A stretch of 64,000 nucleotides of DNA, from NCBI GenBank assembly GCA_024405635.1, contig JAKSOL010000003.1, positions 124,046 to 188,045 on the forward strand, in the 5' to 3' direction. Shown here in pieces: positions 50,540 to 50,869 of this stretch. The position numbers were made by a program, and so were the translations under genes. Under the pieces are notes generated by a model. It was not told where the DNA came from. It saw only the letters and a program-made list of their open reading frames with translations, and did no database searches. The stretch is from Salinivirgaceae bacterium. GTDB taxonomy: Bacteria > Bacteroidota > Bacteroidia > Bacteroidales > SZUA-534. Numbering within the stretch: the first letter of the stretch is position 1; every line of letters begins with the position of its first letter.

Positions 50540-50569
50540 TTTGGTATGAGAAATATTGTTATATATTTG
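50540..50569 (+). promoter_or_regulatory. Sigma70 promoter of the variable-protein operon
   Basis: TTTG at 50540-43 and TATATTTG at 50562-69. Confidence 0.7.
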
Positions 50570-50604
50570 CTCTCCATTTTTAACAACAAAAACAAATTTT
50601 TAAT

Positions 50605-50724
50605 ATGTCGATGTGTAGTGCTATGTTATTGTGTATCAATAATTTTGTATTCTCGCAAAATTTATTAAACACACACACACACACACACACACACACACAC
50701 ACACACACACACAATACCATTTAG
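50605..50724 (+). CDS. Putative 39-aa leader peptide containing the microsatellite: MSMCSAMLLCINNFVFSQNLLN(TH)7NTI
   Basis: ATG in an A/T-rich context 35 nt after the promoter; runs through (AC)22 to TAG at 50722. Confidence 0.5.
   Translation: MSMCSAMLLCINNFVFSQNLLNTHTHTHTHTHTHTHNTI
50669..50712 (+). repeat. (AC)22 dinucleotide microsatellite
   Basis: Perfect 44-nt tract, the only long simple repeat I saw in the window. Confidence 0.97.
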
Positions 50725-50763
50725 ATATATAGTTGTCGGCCTTGCCGACACAATAATACATAG

Positions 50764-50805
50764 AGCGCTTGCCATGCTGCATTTGCAGTTGGCAGCGCTT
50801 TTTTT
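50764..50805 (+). terminator. Leader terminator / attenuator upstream of the 50870 gene
   Basis: AGCGCtTGCCA/TGGCAGCGCT stem with inner CTGC/GCAG, followed by T7; a second hairpin TGTCGGC/GCCGACA lies at 50734-50750. Confidence 0.75.
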
Positions 50806-50869
50806 GTTTTACGCGCTATGTTCAGCGAGAAACTTAAAATTTAGAAATTAAAACGTAACAATTTGAACT

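Follow-up and report, generated by a model that had tools for sequence, protein, structure and literature searches.

In the classical attenuators (trp, his, thr, pheA and pyrBI), the position of the ribosome on a leader open reading frame (ORF) governs an intrinsic terminator—at pyrBI, the ribosome physically covers the hairpin—and a metabolite is answered by stalling or pausing. In Neisseria, Haemophilus and Helicobacter, slipped-strand repeats located inside the genes switch surface genes by reading frame. The closest described counterpart of the present locus is pil1 of Streptococcus gallolyticus, whose leader-repeat phase variation was proven by mutants in the ATG, the stop and the terminator, with stops at least 28 nt upstream of the hairpin being OFF (Danne 2014, PMC3894217). 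Published leader-repeat attenuation was found in the pil1 paper and one review citing it, with no case from Bacteroidota, most subscription journals and supplements lying outside the coverage of the search. The Bacteroides known for stochastic on/off control of surface structures use invertible promoters (PMC11868660); the excerpted text of that review mentions inversion for Bacteroides, not leader repeats, and contains neither leaders nor gallolyticus.

The locus described here lies in a window of 64,000 nucleotides from the assembly of a Salinivirgaceae bacterium (GCA_024405635.1), the window belonging to contig C23 of a genome of 2.66 Mb with 40% GC. T9SS tails, A-rich starts without Shine-Dalgarno sequences and an occurrence in gut metagenomes likewise indicate Bacteroidota, most likely Bacteroidales. 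It is probably a phase-variable transcription attenuator working as in pil1, with 20 or 23 AC units being ON and the assembled 22 units OFF.

The locus, its reading frames and the genes behind it

All the elements listed by an earlier, sequence-only reading—a promoter-like box, a leader ATG, an (AC)22 tract, a hairpin, a terminator and a first gene—are present (Table 1).

Table 1. Features of the locus (positions in the window) and paralogous cassettes of the same genome (G000, positions in the contigs named)
Feature	Position	Strand	Basis
Promoter, Bacteroidota-type, TTTG-N18-TATATTTG	50540..50569	+	sequence; Bacteroidota consensus, start site predicted
Leader ORF, 39 aa at n=22, predicted OFF	50605..50724	+	frame translation and start context
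Pre-tract motif, conserved: imperfect inverted repeat, weak hairpin	50641..50668	+	cross-genome profile
(AC)22A simple sequence repeat, proposed frame switch	50669..50713	+	TRF and sequence
TAG, end of n=21/24 frame, predicted OFF	50730..50732	+	frames, folding
Hairpin 1, candidate RNA-polymerase pause hairpin	50734..50750	+	folding; pause role inferred
Intrinsic terminator (attenuator), predicted	50764..50805	+	folding
TAA, end of n=20/23 frame, predicted ON	50849..50851	+	frames
Gene 1: 169-aa secreted protein, T9SS C-terminal sorting domain	50870..51379	+	PF18962, TIGR04183
Gene 2: 501-aa surface protein, two C-type-lectin-fold (Lcl_C-like) domains	51466..52971	+	relatives, model
Gene 2 domain ends resembling DGR variable regions	52108-52299, 52768-52962	+	codon pattern
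Terminator-like hairpin at operon end	52994..53027	+	sequence; copies after paralogous genes
Cassette (AC)28 before paralogous two-gene operon	G000:C36:110188-109899	-	same layout
Cassette (AC)4 before lectin-domain surface gene or operon	G000:C16:7923-7693	-	same layout
Cassette (ATAC)7 before lectin-domain surface gene or operon	G000:C33:13579-13805	+	same layout

The promoter-like box, which we take to match the Bacteroidota promoter consensus, ends 35 nt 5' of the leader ATG, and the genome contains 205 boxes of this type, or 0.038 per kb of strand. In the related loci, a -7 box just 5' of the leader ATG was seen in 19 of 28, against 5.6 expected. A second -7-like box, at 50640 inside the pre-tract motif, lacks a -33 partner. 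No -7 box was found between the terminator and gene 1, where a separate promoter would have spoken against the sequence-only reading.

Concerning the translation start, a context matrix was built from 732 unambiguous gene starts and 11,215 intergenic ATGs of this genome. The leader ATG lies at the 98th percentile of the true starts and is equalled by 0.1% of the background ATGs, the two later ATGs in the leader scoring poorly; at the level of sequence, the leader thus has a credible start. Its context agrees with the start rule of Bacteroidetes (A-rich, A at -3) given in PMC6847099. The leaders of the cassettes on contigs C36 and C16 reach the 90th and 98th percentiles, and that on C33 the 17th, i.e. 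a weak one.

The tract consists of 22 perfect AC units (50669-50712) plus one A, counted as 22.5 copies by TRF; it should be pointed out that n=22 is the assembly consensus, not a measured allele. Read from its ATG, the leader peptide is MSMCSAMLLCINNFVFSQNLLN(TH)n, the tract contributing about 15 alternating Thr and His codons and a stop codon in none of its frames. Translation of the alleles with 17 to 27 units confirmed the stops claimed earlier: TAG 50722 for n=19, 22 and 25, TAG 50730 for n=18, 21, 24 and 27, and TAA 50849 for n=17, 20, 23 and 26, the last frame ending 18 nt 5' of the ATG of gene 1. As all three frames end 5' of 50870, none is fused to gene 1 and the locus falls outside the intragenic frameshift type. 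The two short frames end 40 nt (n=22) and 32 nt (n=21/24) before the terminator stem, distances beyond the 28 nt given for pil1, and both are therefore predicted to be OFF, the third frame passing the stem. The claim that one frame of three is ON and the assembled allele OFF fits this locus accordingly. The locus shares with pil1 a repeat unit not divisible by three, a leader ORF, a predicted intrinsic terminator and surface-protein targets, as well as at least one frame stopping well 5' and one reaching the hairpin.

Of the 333 gene-end terminators predicted for the genome, 89% are weaker than the terminator of this locus (-21.2 to -25.2 kcal/mol, T7 tail), which a generic terminator scan missed. 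Under constrained folding, its base pairs kept a probability of 1.0 whether the leader was free of ribosomes or carried one in the tract or at either short stop, and fell to 0 once the ribosome entered the 5' arm; since the terminator is lost in that case only, control by the frame is supported. Hairpin 1 (-10.6 kcal/mol; 0.6% of 500 shuffles equally stable) is a candidate pause hairpin for RNA polymerase, a part in an antiterminator having been ruled out by folding. C36 and a genome of the sister genus (G027) also have a hairpin some 21 to 37 nt past the tract, which is absent at C16 and C33. At the Rfam gathering score, no leader RNA matched in 18 loci including this one, the one match being a tRNA.

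Terminators having been predicted after 1,552 genes, 16 of the 333 gene-end terminators start at most 12 nt from the stop codon, the median being 26 nt. Johnson et al. in 2020 reportedly took the stop-to-terminator distance, by a 12-nt rule, as a sign of coupled transcription and translation. By this criterion, and with no uncoupled genome as control, the spacing in the present genome bears signs of the coupled pattern. Bacteroidota are not among the runaway phyla named in the excerpts of PMC13323073.

In the proposed mechanism, transcription would start near 50575 and a ribosome would load at the leader ATG via the A-rich Bacteroidota context devoid of a Shine-Dalgarno (SD) sequence, then track RNA polymerase through the tract, the frame of which would be reset whenever replication slippage adds or removes AC units. 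With n mod 3 equal to 1 (22) or 0 (21, 24), the ribosome would halt at its stop ahead of the stem, the terminator would fold and the transcript would end near 50805, the OFF state. With n mod 3 equal to 2 (20, 23), the ribosome would cross the stem, leaving the terminator unable to fold, and in this ON state both genes of the operon, for the T9SS-tagged protein and for the surface protein with the lectin fold, would be transcribed. By pausing the polymerase, hairpin 1 may allow the ribosome to catch up. The result would be a mixed population with and without the surface protein, conceivably a bet-hedging against phage or host recognition.

Of the two genes, gene 1 matches PF18962 (E 6.9e-10) and TIGR04183 (E 1.4e-8), its signal peptide being judged by eye. 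Gene 2 alone has no Pfam match, Lcl_C being found in 15 of 29 aligned relatives; its product begins with a signal-like stretch and contains two lectin-fold domains, and a coiled coil is probable as judged by eye. The single-sequence structure model was unusable (pLDDT 36). With the domain model (pLDDT 91.9), the best fold matches were the C-terminal domain of Lcl (Z 7.4), Mtd (Z 6.6), TvpA (Z 6.4) and TaqVP (6.3), all below Z 8, the best with an rmsd of 2.9 over 103 residues and the match list being dominated by the C-type-lectin fold. Foldseek and phmmer against the PDB gave nothing at E 0.001, and phage records contained no match to either gene.

DGR variable regions are poor in A and differ at codon positions 1 and 2. 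The domain ends of gene 2 resemble them: 27 of the 31 differences between the two regions are at codon positions 1-2, and their A content is 13-15% versus 30-38%. Gene 2, as modelled, combines a C-type-lectin fold with a C-terminal variable-region-like end, as DGR targets do. Because neither a reverse transcriptase (PF00078) nor a template repeat (blastn) was found in the 36-contig, 99.78% complete assembly, from which a mobile copy could be missing, it may be a relic or a remote DGR target. Both genes encode surface proteins, not proteins of amino-acid biosynthesis or import, which sets the locus apart from attenuators of the his/thr type. A REP-like palindrome is present between and after the regulated genes (51404-51427 and 53050-53110); it has five copies in the genome (at most 3 mismatches), several of them adjoining lectin-domain genes.

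Recurrence in the genome, in strains and across the order

Runs of 3, 4, 5 and 6 AC units number 877, 67, 9 and 1 in the genome, and just two exceed six units, those of 22 (this locus) and 28 (contig C36). A chance origin of the tract is rejected, since both lie far beyond the six-unit background and precede paralogous operons. The search for further (AC)n leaders with one frame across a terminator, suggested by the sequence-only reading, succeeded in its own genome as well as in others. The flanks of this locus match the paralogous cassettes on each side, with tract lengths being unequal among the paralogues. The C16 leader, with 4 units only, has a front end 88% identical to the present one, and the C16 and C36 leaders differ from it by 6-nt and 3-nt indels that keep the frame. 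Exactly one frame is open to the terminator loop in all four own cassettes and in one of G027, their spacers having diverged; by shuffles, this would occur by chance at 0.23-0.56 per locus, with a product of 0.018 over the five related loci, and as evidence the pattern alone is weak. If the first ATG is used, the assembled alleles of all four own loci represent a short frame. At C36, one short stop comes as close as 10 nt to the stem, so that the assembled allele there may be ON and a single ON frame does not hold as a general rule. At C36 and C16 the terminator itself contains the end of the long frame, and at C33 this frame runs 3 nt beyond the U-tract; all three end points are far from the gene. 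Among other repeats of the genome, the leader-terminator layout was seen in none of the six checked.

The orthologous operon in a further genome (G022) has no tract and no visible terminator, and in the sister genus none of the 80 stretches examined near lectin-domain genes contains an AC tract before a terminator, two 7-mer repeats being flagged there; the operon hence does not depend on the switch, and the cassette is an add-on. A pattern of AC tract plus terminator matched 12 of 33 family genomes, the true cassettes being those of the present genome and G027. The match at G022:C37 sits in a coding region, the (AC)7 matches in G012, G015 and G031 are inside large genes, and for that in G032 a leader start is not apparent. 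The G027 cassette (L042, contig C107) has its AC tract broken twice by single changes, a terminator similar to that of the present locus, and a leader ATG overlapping the stop of the upstream gene. A related-locus search with this locus gave eight distant matches, all T9SS tails.

Several other lectin-domain genes of this genome deserve mention. A 91-aa internally deleted copy without a leader cassette is located at G000:C12:151902-152177 (+). Two near-duplicate large surface genes with a common upstream segment (G000:C1:145187 and 140465, both -) flank a presumably thiC-like gene, the first copy following a tRNA-like sequence.

Concerning the pre-tract motif, its approximately 27 nt are conserved as nucleotides, not as peptide: selection at the peptide level was not seen among 29 synonymous versus 180 non-synonymous single changes, and the reading register is different in G349 and G385. 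A profile based on 11 loci of other genomes ranked C16 first, this locus third and C36 twelfth of 2,347 AC-like sites of the genome, its matches on C32, C17, C6 and C14 not being cassettes. The motif pattern gave no match in metagenome contigs. The motif itself may serve as a site of pausing or of factor binding on which the switch depends.

Strain contigs from four runs were compared over 50716-52400, those of three DNA runs (two studies) spanning the terminator and gene 1. Among the differences listed, beyond which there are 76 more, the change found at 50793 in one strain leaves a G-U pair in place; this strain has also lost 4 nt in the U-tract region, and another strain 1 nt in the same region. 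Both losses displace the point at which the long peptide ends, so that neither its tail nor the 18-nt gap to gene 1, correctly described for this assembly, is conserved between strains; the crossing of the stem is kept. Two strain contigs end about 30 letters 5' of 50716, within the tract coordinates, and the third continues for about 1 kb and is unlike the present sequence 5' of 50750. In an RNA run (X7, share 0.10), genes 1 and 2 are partly covered by contigs and 50716-50886 is not covered at all; as such contigs give no level, strand or end information and DNA may be present, no conclusion is drawn from them.

Across the order, (AC)9 or longer occurs in 26 of 400 other genomes. From the 76 AC tracts gathered, 34 were dropped before counting (the own locus, one CRISPR array, three contig-end pure repeats, and 29 with short flanks or tracts <16 nt), leaving 42. 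The next downstream gene is on the AC strand in 30 of these and on the GT strand in 12; an ATG is open to the tract in 40, with a positive start score in 28. They comprise 24 leader-type tracts, 8 without a nearby gene, and 10 with a frame open for at least 500 nt, the last being probable gene fusions of the ordinary frameshift type. In 15 of the 24 leader-type loci, one frame continues without a stop until 45 nt or less from the next gene, where dinucleotide shuffles predict 4.8; when one locus per genome is taken, the figures are 7 of 15 and 2.1. The thresholds of this test were chosen after the loci had been inspected, gene starts were called mechanically, and, since paralogues and kin are not independent, tail probabilities of these counts are overstated. 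Nine leader-type loci have no frame open to the gene. A terminator was called in 9 of the 24 and is strong in about five; each of the nine is crossed by one frame, with another frame stopping early. Of 28 assembled alleles, 20 represent a short frame and 8 the long one, a share near one in three. A rough signal-peptide test was positive for 18 of 30 downstream genes. A further count, 36 of 41 tracts with a frame open for 120 nt (14.2 expected), was set aside as it includes frames running into genes.

Other repeat units and front ends were also encountered. At L260 (G308:C9:103400), (ATAC)10 comes directly after an ATG; downstream of it are a strong terminator, which one of the frames crosses, and a gene for a secreted protein; of the four ATAC tracts in other genomes, that of G308 alone fits the layout clearly. 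A second leader front end, unlike the pre-tract motif of this locus and with peptides ending ETLAA, NPRGC or KPAWL, is found in G041, G125, G193 and G357, before the AC tracts of L182, L183, L184, L193, L218, L219, L221, L223, L246, L247 and L248. In many relatives (L179, L186, L201, L202, L209, L210, L225, L238, L240, L241, L255, L256), a CGCGCG-rich motif, often together with AT runs, follows the tract by 5-50 nt, a placement not seen here. One frame apparently fuses the leader to the next ORF at L180, L212, L214 (G385), L040 (G005), L199 and L203, which, judged from sequence, appear to represent ordinary frameshift phase variation with the common front end. An (AC)13 tract at L181 (G292:C43) is located within a CRISPR array.

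Competing explanations

The frame-dependent attenuation put forward by the sequence-only reading, still a prediction, draws support from the start context, ribosome-occupancy folding, the signs of coupling, the paralogues and the cross-genome counts; it agrees with the mechanism proven for pil1, a system that reading had not named. Against this background, it is unlikely that the frame matters mainly via translation or Rho, the long frame feeding ribosomes to the start of gene 1 or shielding the leader and the terminator being secondary. In relatives the long frame does often end at or near the next start (156 vs 155, 159 vs 158, 295 vs 303, 351 vs 366 and 380 vs 376), 15 of the 24 leader-type loci have no called intrinsic terminator, the tract-to-stem stretch of the present locus is 34% C and 8% G, and Rho is encoded in the genome. 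However, a strong terminator stands in the path here, the long frame ends far from the gene at C36, C16 and C33, the U-tract indels of two strains shift its end point, and gene 1 has a good start of its own (75th percentile). For the 15 leaders without a called terminator, Rho shielding or translational coupling may apply.

That no switch works here, i.e. that the repeat is neutral or has decayed, or merely reflects the assembly consensus, ahead of a silent or leak-through operon, is quite unlikely. It would suit the tractless orthologue in G022, the mere 4 units at C16 and the strain contig diverging 5' of 50750, but both long AC tracts are equally placed before paralogous operons, the tract is perfect, its flanks match those of the paralogous cassettes and the layout recurs in many families.

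An effect of tract length without translation, as an RNA spacer or as supercoiling-responsive purine-pyrimidine DNA, would be graded instead of following n mod 3. We regard it as very unlikely, even though the GU-rich leader can pair with the AC tract (-14.7 kcal/mol), the pre-tract motif is conserved as nucleotides, alternating CG and AT runs come after the tract in several relatives, and a 5'-UTR repeat mechanism is reported for Haemophilus (PMC12721329). No upstream sequence competes with the terminator (best duplexes -10.7 and -13.9 vs -21.4), and both the strong ATG context and the surplus of long open frames would be left unexplained.

Finally, the sensing of Thr or His, in which starvation stalling on the Thr-His codons would control read-through as the sequence-only reading had also considered, is extremely improbable: in spite of the codon run and of amino-acid attenuation in this organism—a 15-aa leader with 7 Phe codons (G000:C32:122539-122686, +) before a gene that we take to be pheA-like—the AC leader forms no antiterminator with the ribosome stalled in the tract (terminator probability 1.0), whereas in the pheA leader a simulated stall, tested in like manner, replaces the terminator by an antiterminator. 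In addition, (AC)n cannot be read as anything but Thr-His, other residues are encoded in the ATAC cassettes, the targets are surface proteins, not biosynthetic ones, and stalling in the ON frame would lower read-through instead of raising it.

Wider meaning and comparison with known systems

The leader-repeat attenuator has, as far as the literature found here goes, been proven so far at one locus type in one Streptococcus. If the frame-dependent attenuator proposed here is true, the mechanism extends to a phylum without Shine-Dalgarno initiation, in which phase variation is described mainly as DNA inversion, and ON and OFF could be read from the tract length, making surface-protein states inferable from long reads of gut samples. 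Scans for phase-variable genes that address promoters, coding repeats and invertons would miss tracts of this intergenic kind, at which assemblies from short reads are often broken. Two carriers, G282 and G385, are single contigs of about 3.3-3.4 Mb, suggesting finished genomes.

More tentatively, and with the odds somewhat against it, the leaders with AC tracts across the order may form one family so far undescribed, a second and recombinase-free system of phase variation in Bacteroidales next to promoter inversion. Its common front end would comprise the promoter, the A-rich start, the pre-tract motif and the AC tract, and its several outputs the intrinsic terminator, Rho cover of leaders up to about 380 nt, ATGA-type coupling and frame fusion; in the present genome, the switch would gate DGR-type hypervariable lectins, on/off noise being stacked on their sequence diversification. 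As to novelty, the phylum, the AC unit and the common front end would be the new parts, together with a distribution across many families in which outputs of several kinds occur.

With regard to the known systems, the classical attenuators differ in that the input here would be a heritable change of length, with no antiterminator, and the intragenic frameshift systems in that the repeat here is outside the regulated gene. Invertible promoters of Bacteroides (PMC11868660) need a recombinase and inverted repeats, and the switch proposed here would need neither. The DGR targets Mtd, TvpA and TaqVP share with gene 2 the fold and a codon pattern like that of adenine mutagenesis, the DGR systems being distinguished by the reverse transcriptase and template repeat, neither of which was found in this assembly. 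The closest likeness is that to pil1 (PMC3894217), which has in common with the present locus the promoter, the leader ORF with a repeat that is not a multiple of three, the intrinsic terminator and the surface-protein operon, as well as a reading frame setting whether the ribosome gets to the hairpin. The two differ in the repeat unit (AC, also ATAC, here; GCAGA in pil1), in initiation (SD-less in Bacteroidota, with a ribosome-binding site in Bacillota), in the number of ON frames (one of three here, as predicted, and two of three in pil1) and in the targets (T9SS and lectin-fold proteins versus sortase pili), the present locus having in addition an extra hairpin before the terminator and several cassettes per genome. 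The likeness, between a proven system and a predicted one, would be in the way of working, not in homology.
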